From the NCBI GenBank assembly GCA_016212085.1, contig JACRHL010000012.1, positions 18,459-82,458 on the forward strand: a stretch of 64,000 bases of DNA, written 5' to 3'. Position numbers and translations under genes: made by a program. The first letter of the stretch is position 1; every line of letters starts with the position of its first letter. Shown here one piece after another: positions 3,641 through 44,770 of the stretch. This DNA is from Nitrospirota bacterium (GTDB taxonomy: Bacteria; Nitrospirota; JACRHL01). The notes below the pieces were generated by a model that was given only the letters and a program-made list of their open reading frames with translations, was not told where the DNA came from and made no database searches.

Positions 3641-4144
3641 ATGCTCCGTCCCTACAAGGGCATCCTGCCCAAGGTCGACCCCAGCGCGTTCGTGGACGCA
3701 TCCGCCCAGGTCATCGGTGACGTGGTCATCGGCGCCGAGTCGGGCATCTGGATGGGCGTGGTGGTGCGGGGCGACGTGAACACCATCCGCATCGGCGCGC
3801 GCACCAACGTGCAGGACAACAGCGTGCTGCACGTGACGCGCCGCACCCACCCGCTGGTGATCGGCGACGACGTGACCATCGGCCACGGCGTCATCGTGCA
3901 CGGCTGCACCCTTAACAACCACGCCTTCATCGGCATGGGGGCGACGGTGATGGACGGCGCCGTGGTGGGGGAGTTCGCCATGGTGGGCGCCGGCTCCCTG
4001 GTGACCCAGGGCAAGGAGATTCCGCCGCGCACCCTGGCCATCGGCTCACCCGCGCGGGTGGTGCGCGAGCTTACCGACGACGAGGTGGAACGCATCCGCC
4101 GCTCGGCCAGGAACTACGTCCAGGACCGGCTCGAATACATGTAG
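3641..4144 (+). CDS. gamma-class carbonic anhydrase family / hexapeptide-repeat protein
   Basis: ORF track; left-handed beta-helix repeats ..VIGDVVIGAESGIWMGVVVRGDVNTIRIGARTNVQDNSVLHV.. Confidence 0.85.
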   Translation: MLRPYKGILPKVDPSAFVDASAQVIGDVVIGAESGIWMGVVVRGDVNTIRIGARTNVQDNSVLHVTRRTHPLVIGDDVTIGHGVIVHGCTLNNHAFIGMGATVMDGAVVGEFAMVGAGSLVTQGKEIPPRTLAIGSPARVVRELTDDEVERIRRSARNYVQDRLEYM

Positions 4145-25394: not shown

Positions 25395-25487
25395 CCCCAT
25401 CACCCCGCAAAGCGGGCCGGGATTGCCGGTGCCGGCGCCGGACGGCGGCAGGCCGTTGACGACGCCGGGGGTGGGCCTTGGCGGGCG

Positions 25488-25634
25488 GTTGAAAAACGGC
25501 GTTTTTCGGCACGCCCGCGCCCGGTCAGGGATGTGGCGGATTTCATGCGCGCCAACGCCTGGGATCCGGAAAAACCGGAAAACCGCGATTTTCCGGTTTC
25601 GAGTTGAAAAAGGCCACGGATGGACTTCTTCACC
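25488..25634 (+). repeat. intergenic multi-hairpin repeat, copy A (upstream of hisS)
   Basis: Aligns by eye to 26993-27137 in the same orientation. Hairpins: GAAAAAC/GTTTTTC, GGATTTCA/TGGGATCC (2 G-U), AAACCGGAAAA/TTTTCCGGTTT, and a degenerate terminal hairpin. Confidence 0.7.
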
Positions 25635-26979: not shown

Positions 26980-26992
26980 GCCCTGGCAGGCT

Positions 26993-27137
26993 GTTGAGAA
27001 ACGGCGTGTTTCGGCGCGCCTGCGGCCGGTACGGGGATGTACCGGCGGATTTCATGCACGTCAGTGATTGAAATCCGGATGAACTGGAAAACCGCGCCGT
27101 TCCGGTTTCGGGTTGAAAAAGTCCGGCCGTGGACTTT
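26993..27137 (+). repeat. intergenic multi-hairpin repeat, copy B (downstream of hisS), ending in the hisS/ihfB terminator hairpin
   Basis: See copy A. Hairpins: CCGGTAC/GTACCGG, GGATTTCA/TGAAATCC, AACTGGAA/TTCCGGTT (1 G-U). Confidence 0.7.
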
Positions 27138-27281
27138 GGGTACCTCTAATAACCGTCGCGAGCGGTGCGAGTGCAAGGCGGACTTAAGCGCAGAACCCGA
27201 GACATATCATGGTGATAGGCGAGGGTTCGAGCACCGCCCAACGCAGCAATCGCGGCGCGCAGCAGGTTATTAGAGGTGCCC
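27138..27281 (+). mobile_element. MITE-like non-autonomous element, copy 1 (144 bp, 17-bp TIR, 4-bp TSD CTTT)
   Basis: Ends are GGGTACCTCTAATAACC and GGTTATTAGAGGTGCCC. Flanked by CTTT at 27134-27137 and 27282-27285. About 90% identical by eye to the inverted copy at 37395-37537. Confidence 0.8.
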
Positions 27282-27298
27282 CTTTTTCAACAATCCGG

Positions 27299-28491: not shown

Positions 28492-30192
28492 TTAGTCCTT
28501 GTCCTTCTTGAGCTGGTCCTGGATCAGGCTGCCCAGGGTGGTCTGCGACCGCTCGCTCTCCTGGCGCGCGACAAAGTCGGCCATGGCGCCCGCCTCCGAG
28601 TCGCCAGTGAGGGCCTTGATGGACAGGGCGATCTTCTGCTCCGCCACGTCCAGGCGGATCACCTTGGCCTTCACGGTCTGCCCGGGGGAGACCATGTCGC
28701 TCATGCGCTTGCCCTCCTCGACGACCATCTCGCTGGCCGGGATCAGGCCCTCGACGCCCTCCTCCAGCTCCACGAACACGCCGAAGTCGGCGATCTTGAC
28801 CACCTTGCAGTCGATCAAGGTGCCCACCCTGTAGGCGTTGGGGATGCGCGACTCCCAGGGGTCGGCCTCAAGCTGCTTGTAGCCCAGGGAGATGCGCTCC
28901 TTGGCGCGGTCCACCTTGAGGATCACCGCCTCCACCTCCTGGCCCTTCTGGAACAGCTCGGACGGGTGCTTGATGTGCTTGGTGTAGGAGATGTCCGAGA
29001 CGTGGATCAGGCCGTCGATGCCCTCCGGCAGGCCGACGAAGGCGCCGAAGTCGGTGAGGTTGCGGATCACGCCCTTCACGCGCTGGCCCACGGCGTAGTT
29101 CTGCTCGATCACGTCCCAGGGGTTGGGCTGGGTCTGCTTCATGCCCAGGGAGATCTTGCGGGTCTCGGGGTTGATGGACAGCACCACCACCTCGACCTGG
29201 TCGTTCACGCTCACCACCTTGGAGGGGTGCTTCACGTCCGAGGTCCAGGACATCTCGGAGACGTGGCACAGGCCCTCGACGCCCTTCTCCAGCTCGATGA
29301 AGGCGCCGTAGTCGGTGAGGCTCACCACCTTGCCCCGGATGCGGCTGTTGACCGCGTACTTCTCGGCGGCGGTGGTCCAGGGGTCCGGGGTCTTCTGCTT
29401 GAGGCCGAGGGACACGCGCTGGCTGTCGCGGTCGAAGCGCAGCACCACCACCTGGAGCCGGTCGCCCACCCTGAGCACCTCCGAGGGGTGGTTGATGCGG
29501 CCCCAGGAGATGTCGGTGATGTGCAGCAGGCCGTCGATGCCGCCCAGGTCCACGAAGGCGCCGTAGTCGGTGATGTTCTTCACCACGCCGTCGATCAGCA
29601 GGCCCGGCTCCAGGTTGGCCAGGGTGGCATCGCGCAGCTTGCCGCGCTCCTCCTCCAGCAGCACCCGGCGCGACAGCACGATATTGTTGCGCTTGCGGTT
29701 GATCTTGATGACCTGCATGGCCAGGGTCTGGCCGATCAGCGCGTCCAGGTCGCGCACGGGGCGCAGGTCGATCTGCGAGCCGGGCAGGAAGCCCTTGATG
29801 CCCCCCACGTCGACGATCAGGCCGCCCTTGATGCGGGACAGGATGACACCCTCCACCGGGGTCTCGGAGTCGTGGGCGTCCTTGAGGGCCTCCCACACCT
29901 TCATGCGGTCGGCCTTCTCCTTCGACAGGACCAGCTTGCCGTCCTTGTTCTCCGGGTTCTCGATGTACACCTGGAGGCCGGAACCGGTATCGAGGGCGGC
30001 CCACTCCTCCGGGGTGAACTCACCCTTGTTGACGACCGCCTCCATCTTGTAGCCGATGTCGACCATCACGCCGTCGGGCTGCTTGCCGATCACGGTTCCG
30101 TCGACCACCTCACCTTCGTTGAAGTTCTTGAAGGTGGCCTCGCACATCTCGAGCATCTGCTCGGTGGAAATACCCTGGGTTGCCTGGCTCAA
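28492..30192 (-). CDS. rpsA: 30S ribosomal protein S1 (start uncertain: TTG 30192 after AGGAG, or TTG 30213)
   Basis: ORF 28492..30213; six S1 repeats, e.g. ..GEVVDGTVIG.. ..VEGVILSRIKGGLIVDVGGIKGFLPGSQ.. Confidence 0.95.
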   Translation of the reverse strand: MSQATQGISTEQMLEMCEATFKNFNEGEVVDGTVIGKQPDGVMVDIGYKMEAVVNKGEFTPEEWAALDTGSGLQVYIENPENKDGKLVLSKEKADRMKVWEALKDAHDSETPVEGVILSRIKGGLIVDVGGIKGFLPGSQIDLRPVRDLDALIGQTLAMQVIKINRKRNNIVLSRRVLLEEERGKLRDATLANLEPGLLIDGVVKNITDYGAFVDLGGIDGLLHITDISWGRINHPSEVLRVGDRLQVVVLRFDRDSQRVSLGLKQKTPDPWTTAAEKYAVNSRIRGKVVSLTDYGAFIELEKGVEGLCHVSEMSWTSDVKHPSKVVSVNDQVEVVVLSINPETRKISLGMKQTQPNPWDVIEQNYAVGQRVKGVIRNLTDFGAFVGLPEGIDGLIHVSDISYTKHIKHPSELFQKGQEVEAVILKVDRAKERISLGYKQLEADPWESRIPNAYRVGTLIDCKVVKIADFGVFVELEEGVEGLIPASEMVVEEGKRMSDMVSPGQTVKAKVIRLDVAEQKIALSIKALTGDSEAGAMADFVARQESERSQTTLGSLIQDQLKKDKD

Positions 30193-30397
30193 TTGATTCA
30201 AACTCCTAAACAAGCAGCATGTCCGTCAAATTGGGTTGCAATCGCCGCGCGCCCGCGCGGCACCACCGCCCCGTGCGGGGCCACGCCCACCACCGTCCCG
30301 CCAACGGACAAATTCCGGGCCGGAGGGGGCGCTTCGCCGTGGGTTCGCGTGCACTGTTTGGTGCTGCGCGCGACCGCGAGCGAGGGGAAAGTCTAGT

Positions 30398-36214: not shown

Positions 36215-36886
36215 TTACGGCCCCGCGTCCCGGTCCGGCGTGGGGTGGTGCTGTTCGTGCAGCTCGCGCTTGAGCGCCGCCACCTCCTCGTAGAGGGCGA
36301 GGATGCGTTCCATGGTGGGGTCGGGCATCTCGGTGTGGTCGAGCGCCTTCTCCGGAAAATCCCCCGGGATCTTGTGGATGATGCGGCCGGGGATGCCCAC
36401 CACCGTGCAGTTGTCGGGTACCGGCTTCAATACCACCGAGTTGGCCCCGATCTTCACGTTGTCGCCGATGACGATGCCGCCCAGCACCTTGGCGCCGCCC
36501 CCCACCACCACATGGTTGCCCAGGGTGGGGTGGCGCTTGCCGCGTTCCTTGCCGGTGCCCCCCAGGGTGACCCCCTGGTAGAGGGTGACGTGGTGGCCGA
36601 TCTCCGTGGTCTCGCCGATCACCACCCCCATGCCGTGGTCGATGAAGAAGGCGTGGCCGATCACCGCGCCCGGGTGGATCTCGATGCCGGTGAAGAAGCG
36701 CGCCAACTGGGAGATGAGGCGCGGCAGCACCGGCACCTGGCGGCGCCACAGGGCGTGGGCGATGCGGTGGGCGAGGATGGCGTGCCAGCCGGAATAGAGC
36801 AGGAACACCTCCACCCGGCTGACCGCCGCCGGGTCGCGCTCGAAGATGGCGGTAAAGTCTTCCTTGAGGGTCTTGAGCAGCTTCAT
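36215..36886 (-). CDS. cysE: serine O-acetyltransferase
   Basis: ORF track; ..[29 protein letters not shown].. ..[24 protein letters not shown].. Confidence 0.92.
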
Positions 36887-36890
36887 GGCC

Positions 36891-37394
36891 TTATCGTGTC
36901 AGGGCGGCGCCGGTGGGCGCGCCATGGGGTTCCAGGAGGCACACCGCCTGCACGGCGATGCCCTCGCCGCGCCCCAGGCAGCCCAGTTTTTCGTGGGTGG
37001 TGGCCTTCACGTTCACCCGTTCGGCCGGGCACCCCAGCGCGCCCGCCAGGTTGGCCCCCATGGCCGCCACGTGCGGGGCCAGGCGCGGCGCCTGGGCGAT
37101 CACCGTGGCGTCCACGTTGCCCACCCGGAAGCCCGCGTCCACCATCAACCGCGCCACGTGGCGGAGCAGGGCCAGGCTGTCGGCCCCCGCGTAGGCCGGG
37201 TCCGTATCCGGGAAGTGGCGGCCGATGTCGCCCAGCCCCAGGGCCCCCAGCACCGCGTCGGCCACCGCGTGCGCCAGGGCGTCCGCGTCGGAGTGGCCGG
37301 CCAGGCCGTGGCTGTGGGGAATGGTCACCCCGCCCAGCACCAGCGGGCGGCCCGTCACCAGGGCGTGCACGTCGTATCCGCAGCCGATTCTCAT
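36891..37394 (-). CDS. ispF: 2-C-methyl-D-erythritol 2,4-cyclodiphosphate synthase
   Basis: ORF 36891..37400 trimmed to ATG 37394. [13 protein letters not shown].. ..[12 protein letters not shown].. Confidence 0.93.
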
Positions 37395-37537
37395 GGGCAC
37401 CTCTATTAACCTGCTACGCGCCCCGATTGCTGCGTTGGGCGGTGCTCGAACCCTCGCCTATCACCATGATATGTCTCGGGTTCTGCGCTCCGTCCGCCTT
37501 GCACTCATGGCGCTCGCGACGGTTAATAGAAGTGCCC
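37395..37537 (-). mobile_element. MITE-like element, copy 2 (143 bp, inverted relative to copy 1, 4-bp TSD TCAT)
   Basis: Ends are GGGCACCTCTATTAACC and GGTTAATAGAAGTGCCC. TCAT at 37391-37394 and 37538-37541. Confidence 0.8.
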
Positions 37538-38248
37538 TCATGATTCCGCGTCCAGCCACGCCCGTGCCGTCAACAGGTCCTGGGGCGTGGTCACCTTGAG
37601 CGCCTCCAGGCGCCCTTCCAGCATGGTCACCGTGGCGCCCGCCGCCTCCGCCAGCGCGGCGTCGTCGGTGCCGGTGGTGCCGCGTTGCCGCGCCAGACCG
37701 TAGGCGTCGCGGATCATCTTAGCGGGAAACACCTGGGGGGTAAACGCCTGCCACAGCCGGGTGCGGTCCGGGGTGCCGGTGACGCGGCCCCGGGCATCCA
37801 CCCGCTTGATGGTGTCGTGGCAGGGGCGGCCCACCACCACCCCCACGCCGTCCTGCCCGGCGCGGCGGATGGCCTCGGCCAGGGTGCGCGGGTCGGGGAA
37901 CGGCCGGGCGGCGTCGTGCACGGCGATCACCGTCGCCTGGGCGGAAACCGCCTGGATGCCGTTGTACACGGATTCCTGGCGCGTCGCCCCGCCGGCCACC
38001 GGCCCCGCACAGCTGATGCCGTGCCGGGCCAGGAGCGCGCGGGTGGCGTCCAGCTCCGTGGGCGGCACCACCGGCACCACCTCGCGCACCAGCGGGCAGG
38101 CCAGCAGCGCGCGCAGGGTGTGGACGATCAGCGGCGCCCCGTGCAGTTCCAGGAACTGCTTGGGCAGCGCCGTGCCCATGCGTGTGCCGCGGCCGCCGGC
38201 GGGCACCACCACGGAGGCGTGCGGTGTTGGGGTTGTGGGATCGATCAC
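37538..38248 (-). CDS. ispD: 2-C-methyl-D-erythritol 4-phosphate cytidylyltransferase
   Basis: ORF track; ..VVVPAGGRGTRMG..PKQFLEL.. ..VHDAARPF.. Confidence 0.92.
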   Translation of the reverse strand: MIDPTTPTPHASVVVPAGGRGTRMGTALPKQFLELHGAPLIVHTLRALLACPLVREVVPVVPPTELDATRALLARHGISCAGPVAGGATRQESVYNGIQAVSAQATVIAVHDAARPFPDPRTLAEAIRRAGQDGVGVVVGRPCHDTIKRVDARGRVTGTPDRTRLWQAFTPQVFPAKMIRDAYGLARQRGTTGTDDAALAEAAGATVTMLEGRLEALKVTTPQDLLTARAWLDAES

Positions 38249-38350
38249 GTGAAATCCGCCCGCGGGGCGGCCCGGGTCGGACCGCCGCGCAAAAAAGGGA
38301 AGGATACGCCGCCGCCGCGTCGGGGTAAACCGCCCGTTTTCATGCGGAAT

Positions 38351-39808
38351 TCAGCGTGGCAGGGTGAGGATGGCATCCAGGCCGCCCCGGGGGCGGTTGC
38401 GCAGGATCAGGTCGCCACCGTGGGCGCGGGCGATGGTGCGGGCGATGGCCAGCCCCAGCCCGGTGCCGCCGGTGGCCCGGTTGCGCGAGGTCTCCAGGCG
38501 CACGAACGGCTCGAACACCTGCTCCAGGCGCTCCTCGGGGATGCCGGGCCCGTCGTCCGCCACGCGGATGGTGAGGGCGTGGCCGTCGTCGGCGATGTGC
38601 ACCCGCGCCGCGCCGCCGTAGCGGATGGCATTCTCCACCAGGTTGTTCAGGCAGCGCTTGAGGGCCACCACCCGCGCCGGGTAGGGGGCCGCCTGGCCAC
38701 TCACGGTGACCGCATGCCCCAGCTCCTCCTGGTCCTCCTGGATGCTTTCCGCCAGGGCGGTGACGTTCACCGCCCGCAGCGGCTCGCCGGCGCCGCCGGC
38801 GCCGCGCATGAAGTCTAGGGTGGCGTTGACCATCGCCTCCATCTCGTCCAGATCCTGGCGCACCTTGTCCTGGAAGGCCGGGTCGCCCGCCAGCTCGGCG
38901 CGCAGGCGCAGGCGGGTGATGGGGGTCTTCAGGTCGTGGGAGACCGCCGCCAGCATCTGCTCCCGGTCGCGCAGGTAGCGGCCGATGCGCTGCTGCATGG
39001 TGTTGAAGGCCGCCGCCGCGCGGCGCACCTCCGCCGGACCGGTTTCCGCCAGGGGCGGGCGGTGGATGTCGCGCCCCAGCTTGTCCGCCGCAGTGGCCAG
39101 CATGGTGAGCGGCCGGGTGACCCGGCGCACGGTGAAGAGGGACACCGCCAGCACCGCCAGGAACAGCACCGCCACCGTCAGCAGCGCCTTGCCGGGCAAC
39201 CCCTCCGCCTGCTCCGGCGGATGGTGCACGAAGGCCACCCAGGTGCCGTCCGCCAGCCGCGTGCGCACCTCGATGCGGGTTTGGCTGGCCACGTCCGGGT
39301 CCCATCCGCCCCACCAGCCCGGCTGACCGCCGCCCGGCCCCCAGCCGGGCTGGACATGGGGCCCGAAGCCGGGCGGAAAGGGGCTCGGCGGCTGCCAGCC
39401 GGGGGGCGGTTCCGGGCGCCGGGAAGCGGGGCGCCGGGTGTCCGCGTCGGGCCGGTCCACCCGTATCCAGAGGGGGTGTTCCCGCCCCAGCCAGCGCGCC
39501 AGCACCACCTTCAGCCGCGCCGCCGCCCGGCCGCCGCTTTCCGGCCGGTCCGGCGGGCCGCCGAACGCCACCAGCAGGTCGGGCCCGTTGACGGCGGCGA
39601 GCAGGGTGCCGCGCTGGTCCGCCGGCACCGCGTCGAGCAGCCGGACGATGCTGGCGATGCGCTGCGCCTTGTGGCGGCCCCCCGCCTCGAACAAGGCCGC
39701 GTCCCGGTCGTGGAGCAGGATGCCGGCGCCGATCAGCTGCGCCAGCAGCAGGCCGCCCAGCAGCACCAGCACCAGACGTCCGAACAGGGTGTCGGGAAGC
39801 AGCCGCAT
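38351..39808 (-). CDS. EnvZ/CpxA-like sensor histidine kinase with Pro/Gly/Trp-rich periplasmic segment
   Basis: Frame of ORF 38351..40549 trimmed to ATG 39808. Two TM segments, HAMP, H-box ..MLAAVSHDLKTPITRLRL.., ..NLVENAIRYG.. ..DDGPGIP.. ..GTGLGLAIA.. Confidence 0.88.
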   Translation of the reverse strand: MRLLPDTLFGRLVLVLLGGLLLAQLIGAGILLHDRDAALFEAGGRHKAQRIASIVRLLDAVPADQRGTLLAAVNGPDLLVAFGGPPDRPESGGRAAARLKVVLARWLGREHPLWIRVDRPDADTRRPASRRPEPPPGWQPPSPFPPGFGPHVQPGWGPGGGQPGWWGGWDPDVASQTRIEVRTRLADGTWVAFVHHPPEQAEGLPGKALLTVAVLFLAVLAVSLFTVRRVTRPLTMLATAADKLGRDIHRPPLAETGPAEVRRAAAAFNTMQQRIGRYLRDREQMLAAVSHDLKTPITRLRLRAELAGDPAFQDKVRQDLDEMEAMVNATLDFMRGAGGAGEPLRAVNVTALAESIQEDQEELGHAVTVSGQAAPYPARVVALKRCLNNLVENAIRYGGAARVHIADDGHALTIRVADDGPGIPEERLEQVFEPFVRLETSRNRATGGTGLGLAIARTIARAHGGDLILRNRPRGGLDAILTLPR

Positions 39809-43542: not shown

Positions 43543-44647
43543 CCCGCCCCGCGGCCAGGCCGCCGCACTGCTCGTCCTGAGACTGCGCGCCCTGGCCCGC
43601 GCGGCCCGTGACCACGCGGCCACGCTGCTGGTGCTGTATCCGCTCATGGCCGGTACCGGCCTGCTGCTGTTGAACCGCGTGCTGGCGGACCTGGGGCCGC
43701 CTTCCGCCGGAGCCACCTGGCTGGCCTGGGGCACGCTGGCCGGCTGCGGGGCGTTCCGGGTTCGCCGCCGTGGCCGCGCGCAGGGCATCGCAGCCGACGC
43801 CTGCCTTCCCTTGAGCCGTTCCGCCCGCTGGCTGGACGCCTACCTGGCGGCCTGGGTGCGCCTGTTGCCGGTGACTGTCCTGGCGCTCCTGGTGGCCGCG
43901 CGGTCGGAGGGTGTTCCCGGCTGGCCGGTGGCGCTGGCCGCCTTCGGGTTGCCCCTGGCGGCGCCTGTTGGCGAACGGGGAGGGGTGGCGCGCGGTTCAT
44001 GGAATTGGCGGTGGGCCGCCAATGGGGTGACGGCCGCGACGGCCTTGCTGCCCCCCCCGTGGCGGCCCCTTGTGGCTCGGGACCTGCTGGTTCTGGCCCG
44101 TGGCGGGGTGCCTGGCGCGGGGGTGAACGCCCTGTTGGCCGTGTTCGCCCTGGGTTGGGCCGTGTGGGTGGCGCTGACGGGCGGCACGCGCGAGGGGCTG
44201 CTGGCGGTCGCGCTGGCCGCATGGGCGCTGTCGGCCACCGTGGCGCCCTTGCTGGCCGGGCAGTGGCGTGCCCTCTGGCTGGCGCGCGACGCGGGCGTTT
44301 CCGCCACCGACCTGTGGCGCGCCAAGGTGGCCGTGGCGGTGCTGTTGGGAACGCTGCCCGGGCTGGTGGCGGCCGCCTGCTGGCTGCCCGTCGCGCCGGG
44401 CACCGCGCTGCTTTGCCCGGTCCTGGCGGCGGCGGTGGGGCTGGCGGTCGGGGCCGCGGTGATGGAGGGGGACGGGCGGCCGCTGCTGCACGGCGTGGCC
44501 TCCCTCATGCTGGCGTTGGGGGTGGGGGTGCTGGCCCTGCTGGGTCCGGCATGGCTCCTGCTCGCACCGGTCTTGGCCGCATATTTGCAAAAACTCGGAG
44601 TGCCACGGCTGGCCCGGCGTGTGGAGGCGCTGGCGCAAGTCGCCTAG
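43529..44647 (+). CDS. hypothetical polytopic membrane protein (start uncertain)
   Basis: ORF track (TTG start overlapping the EVE gene by 14 nt). Strong third-position G/C bias in this frame; multiple Ala/Leu/Trp-rich hydrophobic segments. Confidence 0.5.
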   Translation: MPKADPPRGQAAALLVLRLRALARAARDHAATLLVLYPLMAGTGLLLLNRVLADLGPPSAGATWLAWGTLAGCGAFRVRRRGRAQGIAADACLPLSRSARWLDAYLAAWVRLLPVTVLALLVAARSEGVPGWPVALAAFGLPLAAPVGERGGVARGSWNWRWAANGVTAATALLPPPWRPLVARDLLVLARGGVPGAGVNALLAVFALGWAVWVALTGGTREGLLAVALAAWALSATVAPLLAGQWRALWLARDAGVSATDLWRAKVAVAVLLGTLPGLVAAACWLPVAPGTALLCPVLAAAVGLAVGAAVMEGDGRPLLHGVASLMLALGVGVLALLGPAWLLLAPVLAAYLQKLGVPRLARRVEALAQVA

Positions 44648-44653
44648 CAACGC

Positions 44654-44770
44654 TGCAAAACCGCCTTGTTTCGGCGCGTTCGCGTCCGGCACGGGGGGGT
44701 GTGCGGCGGATTCCGGGCGTGGATATCCGGAATCCATCCTGCTGGGACTTGCCGTGGCCGGCCGTTCTGC
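44654..44770 (+). repeat. diverged partial copy C of the multi-hairpin repeat family
   Basis: ..AAAACCGCCTTGTTTCGGCGCG..CCGGCAC..GTGCGG..GGATTCCGG-N10-CCGGAATCC.. aligns by eye to the first ~90 nt of copies A and B. Confidence 0.5.

Follow-up and report, generated by a model that had tools for sequence, protein, structure and literature searches.

The ispD-ispF junction and the element within it

The window analysed here is the whole 64,000-nt stretch of DNA, and all positions refer to it. On the minus strand ispD is followed by ispF, and a MITE (copy 2) lies between the two genes. The features at this junction are as follows.

37538-38248, minus strand: ispD (2-C-methyl-D-erythritol 4-phosphate cytidylyltransferase), 236 aa if read from the first possible start, assigned by Pfam and orthologues
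36891-37394, minus strand: ispF (MEcPP synthase, YgbB family), 167 aa, N-terminus MRIGCGYD, assigned by Pfam and orthologues
37395-37537, no strand assigned: MITE copy 2, 143 bp, recognised by its TIRs, its 4-nt flanks and comparison with copy 1
37395-37411, plus strand: TIR, left on the plus strand and 3' arm in the ispD-ispF mRNA, GGGCACCTCTATTAACC
37521-37537, minus strand: TIR, right on the plus strand and 5' arm in the mRNA, GGGCACTTCTATTAACC on the minus strand, with one mismatch
37391-37394, minus strand: TSD on the ispF side, TCAT (ATGA on the coding strand), which gives the ispF ATG at 37392-37394
37538-37541, minus strand: TSD on the ispD side, the last base of an ispD Ser codon plus the TGA at 37538-37540

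Both reading frames are intact, as had been claimed in a sequence-only reading of this DNA. The ispD product matches Pfam IspD (E = 3e-65) and has the C-terminus ..ARAWLDAES, which extends as far as in orthologues, and its TGA lies at 37538-37540. Residues 1-154 of IspF match positions 1-154 of the 155 positions of Pfam YgbB (E = 2e-67), and the orthologous IspF N-termini (MRIG, VRIG or VKIG) are found at the equivalent place, which supports the ispF start that had been proposed. A start at a GTG internal to the TIR (37398-37400, MPMRIG) was considered after MPVKIG was seen in L121, and was rejected because the GTG lacks SD spacing, the Pfam model begins at MRIG, and L129, L127 and L119 begin at the homologous M/V-R/K-I-G.

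On the plus strand copy 2 begins with GGGCACCTCTATTAACC and finishes with GGTTAATAGAAGTGCCC, and its 17-nt TIRs are complementary at 16 of 17 positions. The TIR search gave four matches in the window, compared with 0.07 expected from shuffles. The GC content of the element is 61% vs. 69% for the window, and there is no coding capacity for a transposase, the sole ORF being an sORF of 26 codons. Folded as RNA over its whole length, copy 2 is predicted to form a hairpin of -76 kcal/mol (z = -7.6 vs. shuffles) with a near-perfect 17-bp basal stem and ~30 more pairs. Three sequencing runs, assembled independently (L115-L118), gave both junctions of the element with identical bases; their contigs end within the element, which a multi-copy repeat would be expected to cause. 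At E ≤ 1 Rfam gave no match to the element region, and its only hits over the window as a whole were three tRNAs. A tRNA-like origin of the element core (the GGTTCGAGC motif) was considered and rejected, as ARAGORN found no tRNA at the core. No sigma-70-like promoter or intrinsic terminator was found in or near the element (36800-38400 for the terminator); the hairpin is followed by AUGAGAAUCGG with no U-tract, unlike a terminator or attenuator built on a GC-rich hairpin.

Copy 2 is bordered by TCAT at 37391-37394 and 37538-37541, which is ATGA on the coding (minus) strand; the chance of two random 4-mers of the window being equal is 0.007. The assignment of the right TCAT to the ispD TGA and of the left TCAT to the ispF ATG agrees with the coordinates of both genes, and the ispD-side TSD also retains an ATG at 37539-37541. 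When the element and one TCAT were removed in silico, the remaining sequence was GGAATCATGAGAATCGGC, in longer context ..GACGCGGAATCATGAGAATCGGC... The reconstructed empty ispD-ispF junction reads GACGCGGAATCATGAGAATCGGCTG.

The ispD-ispF junctions of related lineages were compared with this reconstruction. L129 has ATGAGAATCGGC at its junction, with the same layout as the reconstructed one; in L127 and L119/L120 the two genes overlap by GTGA and in L121 by 10 nt, L124 has a spacer of 3 nt, and none of the five related lineages has a spacer of more than 3 nt. Four-nt ATGA/GTGA overlaps are thus present in three lineages, and these junctions together with the in-silico excision bear out the former ATGA stop/start overlap that the sequence-only reading had deduced. 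The empty site is inferred here from relatives, since the closest orthologues are ~67% identical in IspD and include no sister strain.

Further copies and the link to IS5-type elements

A related element is found elsewhere in the window, with the following features.

27138-27281, no strand assigned: MITE copy 1, 144 bp, in opposite orientation to copy 2 and identical to it at 131/144 nt (91%)
27134-27137, no strand assigned: left TSD of copy 1, CTTT, from flank reading
27282-27285, no strand assigned: right TSD of copy 1, CTTT, from flank reading

Copy 1 has the 3' end of hisS on one side and that of an HU/IHF-type gene on the other. Removal of copy 1 and one CTTT gave GTTGAAAAAGTCCggccgtGGACTTTTTCAAC, a perfect hairpin with a 13-bp stem; no element interrupts the paralogous repeat at 25600-25632. 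Two more copies with the same core were found in metagenome contigs L122 and L123. The TIRs and the 91% identical copy thus confirmed that 37395-37537 is a MITE inverted relative to copy 1, and the 4-bp TSD is real, with TCAT at both ends of copy 2 and CTTT at copy 1. A 5-bp duplication (CTCAT) was also considered; it fails for copy 1, and identical 5-nt flanks were present in 0/49 related elements.

A TIR superfamily was defined from at least 114 loci of other taxa by a degenerate-TIR search of genome contigs. Among the matches listed, elements of 48-427 bp from many phyla also have the 17-nt TIR at their ends; the 4-nt flanks were identical for 24 of 49 related elements, compared with 0/49 in a shifted control. 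In another genome (L079) the left TIR GGGCACCTCTATTAACC belongs to an IS of 1370 bp with TTGA duplicated at both ends; its right end, GAATAAATAGACGTGCCC, is weaker, with five mismatches to the TIR consensus. The L079 transposase carries Pfam DUF772 and DDE_Tnp_1 and scored 241 bits (cut-off 140) against NCBIfam NF033581, 'IS5 family transposase', and the L094 transposase scored 269 bits. The IS5 group is known for a 4-bp target duplication (ISfinder descriptions). Copy 2 and the L079 IS have in common the 17-nt TIR and the 4-bp duplication, whereas copy 2 is without a transposase gene and its internal 109 nt are unrelated and form one long hairpin. No single simple consensus covers the targets of the family, which are TCAT and CTTT here and numerous A/T-rich 4-mers elsewhere. 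A tblastn search of the 64-kb window found no autonomous IS5-type element or transposase, and a literature search gave no match to the TIR string. We concluded, from the sequence comparisons, that copy 2 is a MITE, a non-autonomous derivative of the IS5 family. The 17-nt IS5-type TIR, being common to MITEs of many phyla, could be used as a query for annotating such elements in metagenomes.

Insertion at the stop/start overlap and its precedents

In the explanation that we prefer, an IS5-family MITE (143 bp, 17-nt TIRs, 4-bp duplication) transposed into the ispD-ispF operon of a high-GC bacterium, probably one of Nitrospirota/Leptospirillia-like affinity, by a staggered cut exactly at the ATGA where the ispD TGA and the ispF ATG overlapped, and gap repair doubled the ATGA. 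Both essential MEP-pathway genes still encode exactly the residues they did before, because the upstream ATGA closes ispD and the downstream ATGA opens ispF. The location may reflect a preference of the element family for A/T-containing tetranucleotides, which in a 69% GC genome would gather at gene boundaries, together with selection that would purge insertions within essential coding sequence. Insertion of the MITE onto the ispD/ispF ATGA overlap, combined with the structural model of coupling described below, is very probably the best joint explanation of this locus.

An alternative in which the operon had this 143-nt spacer ancestrally, as a regulatory hairpin, with TCAT repeated by coincidence, has in its favour only that an empty site in a sister strain was not found, and we regard it as extremely improbable: it is for practical purposes refuted by copy 1, which is 91% identical, lies 10 kb off in an unrelated context and has its own 4-bp duplication, by the orthologous junctions (0/5 lineages with a spacer of more than 3 nt) and by the TIR being that of an IS5-family IS, and the additional copies in other contigs, the chance of 0.007 for equal 4-mers and the absence of both a U-tract terminator and an Rfam family also argue against it.

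Events of this type are already known, with precedents in MIRUs and in the Chunjie MITE. As summarised in PMC3184786, the mycobacterial MIRUs (Supply et al., 1997) are small repeats in polycistronic operons with tetranucleotide direct repeats on both sides; empty sites exist in a related species, the MIRU ends overlap the termini of adjacent genes, and the MIRUs are transcribed as part of the operon. Going by that summary, MIRUs come closest as a precedent for a 4-nt duplication that falls on a gene junction and leaves both genes intact, and the tetranucleotide repeat at an operon stop/start junction is found here too, with ATGA doubled and both codons kept. The same summary describes MIRUs as units of 40-100 bp, often in tandem, with imperfect TIRs, no known transposase and an ORF that bridges two genes. 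In contrast, copy 2 is a single unit with clear IS5-linked TIRs, and its sORF ends mid-element with no bridging ORF. Chunjie, a MITE from Geobacter uraniireducens (Chen et al., 2008), is summarised as a recently active element found in an operon whose structure was left undisturbed, with very stable predicted RNA hairpins (PMC10969869, PMC3184786). Compared at the level of these summaries, it differs in having 21-bp TIRs, 9-bp direct repeats, a length of 178-235 bp and an A+T rich composition (PMC3184786). The Correia elements of Neisseria are described as MITEs of ~100-150 bp that are co-transcribed and whose TIR RNA duplexes alter expression (PMC2649163, PMC10969869). Correia elements have a TA duplication and other TIRs, can give rise to promoters, contain IHF sites and serve as substrates of RNase III, whereas the copy 2 family has varied 4-bp duplications and a different TIR, and a sigma-70-like promoter was not found in copy 2.

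The ispD-MITE-ispF arrangement is a clean natural case of how a TSD can keep an insertion neutral where an operon is most fragile, here the 4-nt overlap of stop and start codon between two essential isoprenoid-precursor genes. It also offers a simple test system for asking whether translational coupling survives a structured insert of 143 nt.

Expression across the inserted hairpin

Two further features bear on the expression of ispF.

37398-37403, minus strand: putative Shine-Dalgarno (SD) GAGGTG in the TIR, 3 nt 5' of the ispF ATG, proposed from anti-SD pairing
37461-37541, minus strand: predicted 26-codon sORF encoding MRALLLTVASAMSARRTERRTRDISW followed by a stop

The two genes are probably still co-transcribed, and ispF may now be translated from the GAGGTG carried by the TIR. 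The predicted SD pairing of GAGGTG is -9.5 kcal/mol vs. -4.4 kcal/mol for the reconstructed ancestral upstream sequence, calculated with the canonical anti-SD GAUCACCUCCUUA; the 16S rRNA of the host lies outside the window. In free mRNA the pairing of the two TIRs into a 17-bp basal stem would keep the GAGGTG locked: the TIR duplex has a predicted energy of -28 kcal/mol, and in the folding model the probability of GAGGTG being unpaired is 0.001. This probability rose to 0.37-0.62 when a ribosome was modelled at the ispD stop. A ribosome terminating at the ispD TGA would sit at the foot of the hairpin, cover the 5' TIR and free the SD. The sORF starts at the ATG retained in the upstream TSD, in an ATGA overlap with the ispD stop, and exists by virtue of that ATG in the flank; it runs across the hairpin's 5' arm and ends near the apex, at nt 77 of the 143 nt of the element. 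A ribosome re-initiating at the retained ATG and reading the sORF would likewise cover the 5' TIR and free the SD; with a ribosome at sORF codons 1 and 5 the folding model gave unpaired probabilities of 0.71 and 0.43, respectively. The stem re-forms in the model after the ribosome has passed sORF codon 10, which makes the predicted unmasking window short.

Translational coupling in which a structured ribosome-binding site becomes unmasked is known from phage MS2 coat-replicase and from the rpmI-rplT type. As in those systems, the downstream SD and start here are paired, according to the models, with a sequence that the upstream ribosome covers. Unlike them, the masking partner would be the other TIR of a transposon, gained in one step. 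Since the SD is masked in free RNA and exposed by a modelled upstream ribosome, ispF translation could stay dependent on ispD, and coupling may persist via RNA structure instead of the stop/start overlap. The bolder proposal, that the insertion rewired coupling in a single step, with the TIR stem hiding the SD and a ribosome on the other TIR opening it, is put forward tentatively from these models. If it were correct, a MITE could serve as a ready-made ribosome-binding site gated by translation, and this would explain its tolerance between essential and tightly coupled genes.

The sequence-only reading had described ispD and ispF as uncoupled. The description holds for the spacing, as 143 nt now lie between the genes, whereas functional uncoupling is unsupported and the SD and hairpin models suggest otherwise. 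In a true uncoupling, ispF would be translated independently of ispD, or poorly, by de novo ribosome loading on the TIR SD when the stem breathes, and the ispD:ispF stoichiometry would no longer be enforced. The distance of 143 nt from the ispD stop to the ispF start is consistent with this, as are the high stability of the hairpin (-76 kcal/mol overall, -28 kcal/mol for the TIR duplex) and the equilibrium models, in which the stem re-forms behind a departed ribosome. However, the SD is practically never free (0.001) unless a ribosome is on the 5' arm, which would make independent loading very inefficient for an essential gene; the insertion is nevertheless unchanged in three samples, and the foot of the stem coincides exactly with the position of the ispD stop and of the retained ATG. 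We consider true uncoupling possible, although doubtful.

By analogy with the Correia elements, RNase III might cut the TIR duplex, split the ispD from the ispF mRNA and leave each with a stability of its own. The near-perfect 17-bp basal stem with ~30 further pairs would suit such an enzyme, and Correia elements are reported to be bound by it and then cleaved or protected (PMC2649163, PMC10969869). Cleavage in the basal stem would, however, remove or damage the SD beside the ispF ATG, and we judge this outcome improbable.

Returning to the structural model of coupling, a broader version in which the TIR acts as a 'portable RBS' was rejected as a general rule and kept only as a local hypothesis, because start codons are not enriched beside TIR ends: among the matches listed, long-ORF starts showed no enrichment at 0-12 nt from 111 superfamily ends. 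In the metagenome contig L123, the ATG of obg adjoins the same end of the element as the ispF ATG does here.

A MITE inserted in the ispD-ispF overlap

Copy 2, a 143-bp MITE, lies between ispD and ispF and is bounded by a 17-nt terminal inverted repeat (TIR) with one mismatch (GGGCACCTCTATTAACC at its start, GGTTAATAGAAGTGCCC at its close). The element and its flanks were read directly from the sequence.

36891-37394, - strand, ispF, 167 aa (Pfam PF02542, E 2e-67)
37391-37394, left flank of copy 2, TCAT (+ strand reading)
37395-37537, MITE copy 2
37538-37540, - strand, ispD stop TGA
37538-37541, right flank of copy 2, TCAT (+ strand reading)
37538-38248, - strand, ispD, 236 aa, ending ..ARAWLDAES (Pfam PF01128, E 3e-65)

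The gene coordinates place the ispD stop in the right-hand TCAT and the ispF start in the left-hand one, which bears out the sequence-only reading that the target duplication regenerates both codons. IspF residues 1-154 align to positions 1-154 of the 155-position PF02542 profile, so the start stays at ATG 37392-37394 (MRIG..) and not elsewhere. An in-frame GTG inside the TIR (37398-37400, - strand; MPMRIG..) was rejected on the profile and the orthologue starts; MPMRIG.. resembles the MPVKIG.. start of the orthologue in the related locus L121 (3202-3219) by coincidence. A serine-acetyltransferase-like hexapeptide gene is located downstream of ispF.

Copy 1 is found between the 3' ends of hisS and an HU/IHF-type gene.

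27134-27137 and 27282-27285, CTTT on both flanks of copy 1
27138-27281, MITE copy 1, both TIR ends matched by the 17-mer search

With up to three mismatches, the TIR 17-mer occurs at exactly four sites in the 64-kb window, which are both ends of the two copies (0.07 sites expected in shuffled sequence). The copies are oppositely oriented and identical at 131/144 positions; no transposase was found in the window. TIR position 12 (27149/27270 vs 37406/37526) has A/T arms in copy 1 and T/A arms in copy 2, so that the copies differ by a compensatory base pair within one genome. In elements of other genomes, both TIRs of one element also carry the same base at W position 12. As RNA, copy 2 with its flanks is predicted to form a single long hairpin (-76 kcal/mol; z-score of -7.6 relative to dinucleotide-shuffled sequence). 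Excision of copy 1 plus one CTTT gives GTTGAAAAAGTCCggccgtGGACTTTTTCAAC, a perfect hairpin with a 13-bp stem, and the paralogous repeat at 25600-25632 carries the corresponding sequence without interruption.

Excision of copy 2 plus one TCAT gives ..GACGCGGAATCATGAGAATCGGCTGCGGATACGAC... The junction was compared with the nearest relatives obtainable (IspD identity 64-68%), those with names being Nitrospirota or Leptospirillia MAGs; L119 shares the synteny of the window (response regulator / histidine kinase / ispD / ispF / hexapeptide / malic-enzyme).

ispD-ispF junctions in related loci
L129: ..GCCATGAGAATCGGCATCGGATACGAT, ATGA overlap, ATGAGAATCGGC as in the reconstructed junction
L127: GTGA overlap
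L119 and L120: GTGA overlap
L121: 10-nt overlap
L124: TAA, then 3 nt, then GTG

None of these junctions has a spacer longer than 3 nt, and the ATGA overlap of L129 is in line with what had been anticipated for related genomes. The more distant homologues P0055 and P0060 are fused IspD-IspF proteins of 391-401 aa with both Pfam domains; such fusion is the other known way of holding the two activities coupled.

Both the ispD/MITE and MITE/ispF junctions were reproduced in assemblies of three sequencing runs (contigs L115-L118), with 0-1 mismatch to the window over 968-2718 nt. All four contigs end inside copy 2, at window 37434 or 37510, as short-read assemblers do at a repeat.

The TIR superfamily and its IS5 family link

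A scan with the TIR pattern GGGYACYTCTAWTAACC, using one genome per species, gave at least 114 loci (L001-L114), and ∼560 chance matches would be expected over the whole database (an estimate based on the pattern and on 596 Gb of sequence). The matches are clearly not chance, judging from the many recurrences per genome and the inverted second TIR nearby. Among the matches listed, repeated TIRs per genome were seen in Saprospiraceae, Campylobacterota, Holosporales, Ruminococcus, Nitrospira, Spirochaetota, and others, and most loci have an inverted second TIR 48-427 bp away. Identical 4-nt flanks were present in 24/49 two-ended elements and identical 5-nt flanks in 0/49 (shifted control also 0), again among the matches listed. 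Within the same matches, the 17-nt TIR GGGCACCTCTAWTAACC is common to 48-427-bp MITEs in many phyla (including Bacteroidota, Campylobacterota, Nitrospirota, Bacillota, Holosporales, and Spirochaetota), with recurrent size classes of 182, 266, and 142-146 bp. Examples are L024 (2013-2060), L049 (3682-3947), L007 (2007-2152), L088, L090, and L113. The string GGGCACCTCTAWTAACC was not found in the literature searched.

Two longer elements carry this TIR and an ORF.

L079, 3808-5177, 1370 bp, full-length IS in an Arenicellales chromosome, TTGA on both sides, 342-aa ORF
L094, 1242 bp, 331-aa ORF

Both proteins contain Pfam DUF772+DDE_Tnp_1 and score 241 (L079) and 269 bits (L094) against NCBIfam NF033581 'IS5 family transposase' (cut-off 140); the nearest related genes on annotated plasmids are labelled 'IS5 family transposase'. 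A 4-bp target duplication is the signature of the IS5 family. Because the TIR is shared with these transposase-bearing elements, copy 2 is a MITE that either descends from an IS5-family IS or was mobilised by one. Insertion with a 4-bp duplication, as had been proposed, is backed by four concordant lines of evidence: the CTTT flanks and excision product of copy 1, the spacer-poor orthologue junctions, the 24/49 flanks of the TIR superfamily, and the full-length IS.

Expression across the element

No sigma-70-like promoter or hairpin-plus-U terminator was found in window 36800-38400, so the simplest reading would be a single ispD-MITE-ispF transcript. The mRNA order is ..GAA UCA UGA, GGGCACUUCUAUUAACC, 109 nt, GGUUAAUAGAGGUGCCC, AUG AGA AUC... 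The 3' TIR contains GAGGUG 3 nt upstream of the ispF AUG, and this putative Shine-Dalgarno (SD) is predicted to pair with the canonical anti-SD at -9.5 kcal/mol, vs -4.4 for the reconstructed ancestral upstream; the weaker ancestral pairing suggests that translation of ispF probably depended on the ATGA overlap. The SD lies inside the 17-bp TIR duplex (-28 kcal/mol), and the ispD stop sits immediately at the base of this stem. An ATG survives in the upstream duplication in the ancestral ATGA context, overlapping the ispD stop, where a small ORF (sORF) may open.

37461-37541, - strand, predicted 26-codon sORF MRALLLTVASAMSARRTERRTRDISW, then stop; opens at the retained ATG, runs through the hairpin's 5' arm and terminates close to the apex

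Ribosome positions were modelled by holding the mRNA single-stranded, with equilibrium folds and the canonical anti-SD.

Modelled unpaired probability of the ispF SD
No ribosome (free RNA): 0.001
Ribosome on ispD stop: 0.37-0.62
Ribosome on sORF codon 1: 0.71
Ribosome on sORF codon 5: 0.43
Ribosome on sORF codon 15 or later: 0.00

The 3' TIR would thus supply the ispF SD, the stem of the two TIRs would mask it in free mRNA, and a ribosome at the ispD stop or on early sORF codons would unmask it. The modelled accessibility points to coupling through unmasking and not to uncoupling. The observation, the insertion and the regenerated codons of the sequence-only reading stand; its functional uncoupling of the two genes is unproven and possibly wrong, the TIR SD being freed by a modelled ribosome at the ispD stop. 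True uncoupling would instead leave weak independent initiation at ispF. Alternatively, RNase III might cleave the TIR duplex in the mRNA, as reported for Correia elements (PMC2649163, PMC10969869). A general role of the TIR as a 'portable RBS' is unsupported, as TIR ends among the superfamily matches listed show no enrichment of long-ORF starts beside them.

Further copies, precedents and site preference

A search with a 20-mer from the element core detected two more copies, in metagenome contigs L122 and L123.

L122, 1166-1307, 3 nt past one gene's TGA and immediately ahead of a histidine-phosphatase-like gene; imperfect flanks AGCA/GGCA (region 1160-1325)
L123, 3691-3833 (region 3691-3836), decayed, downstream of rplU-rpmA, with the obg ATG directly adjoining its end ..GCGAGGTACCC

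Both belong to the copy-2 subfamily and are likewise at gene starts. The whole-length hairpin is kept in five aligned copies, with double changes at 10/48 predicted pairs.

GC content is 68.8% in the window, 61% in the element, and 53% in the TIR, and duplicated targets among the superfamily matches listed are mostly A/T-rich tetranucleotides, which in a high-GC genome cluster at stop/start codons and terminators. Of the four known subfamily copies, three occupy very tight junctions between cistrons; the remaining one is inside a terminator-like hairpin that separates convergent genes. Target preference and purifying selection are enough to explain the position of copy 2; special ATGA targeting is unnecessary.

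This type of event has precedents in the MIRUs of mycobacteria, which lie within polycistronic operons, are missing from homologous M. leprae sites, carry tetranucleotide direct repeats on their flanks and overlap adjacent gene termini (PMC3184786). Copy 2 is no MIRU, as shown by its clear IS5-linked TIRs, its single unit and an sORF that does not bridge the genes. With its 4-bp TCAT duplication it is neither Chunjie, which has 9-bp repeats, nor Correia, which duplicates TA. Copy 2 is an IS5-type MITE whose insertion into a stop/start overlap was neutral. It makes a neat and well-supported example, with a mechanistic twist that can be tested, and is no surprise for a specialist.

Other repeats were noted in the window. 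A family of ∼150 nt (25480-25627 and 26985-27136, flanking hisS; partial third copy at 44640-44700) has several internal hairpins, no Rfam match, and a terminal stem GTTGAAAAAG..CTTTTTCAAC within which MITE copy 1 is nested. The 261-nt direct repeats at 28492-30213 (- strand; repeat-finder families D1, D2, D4, and D7) are ordinary, being the internal repetition of S1 domains in ribosomal protein S1.
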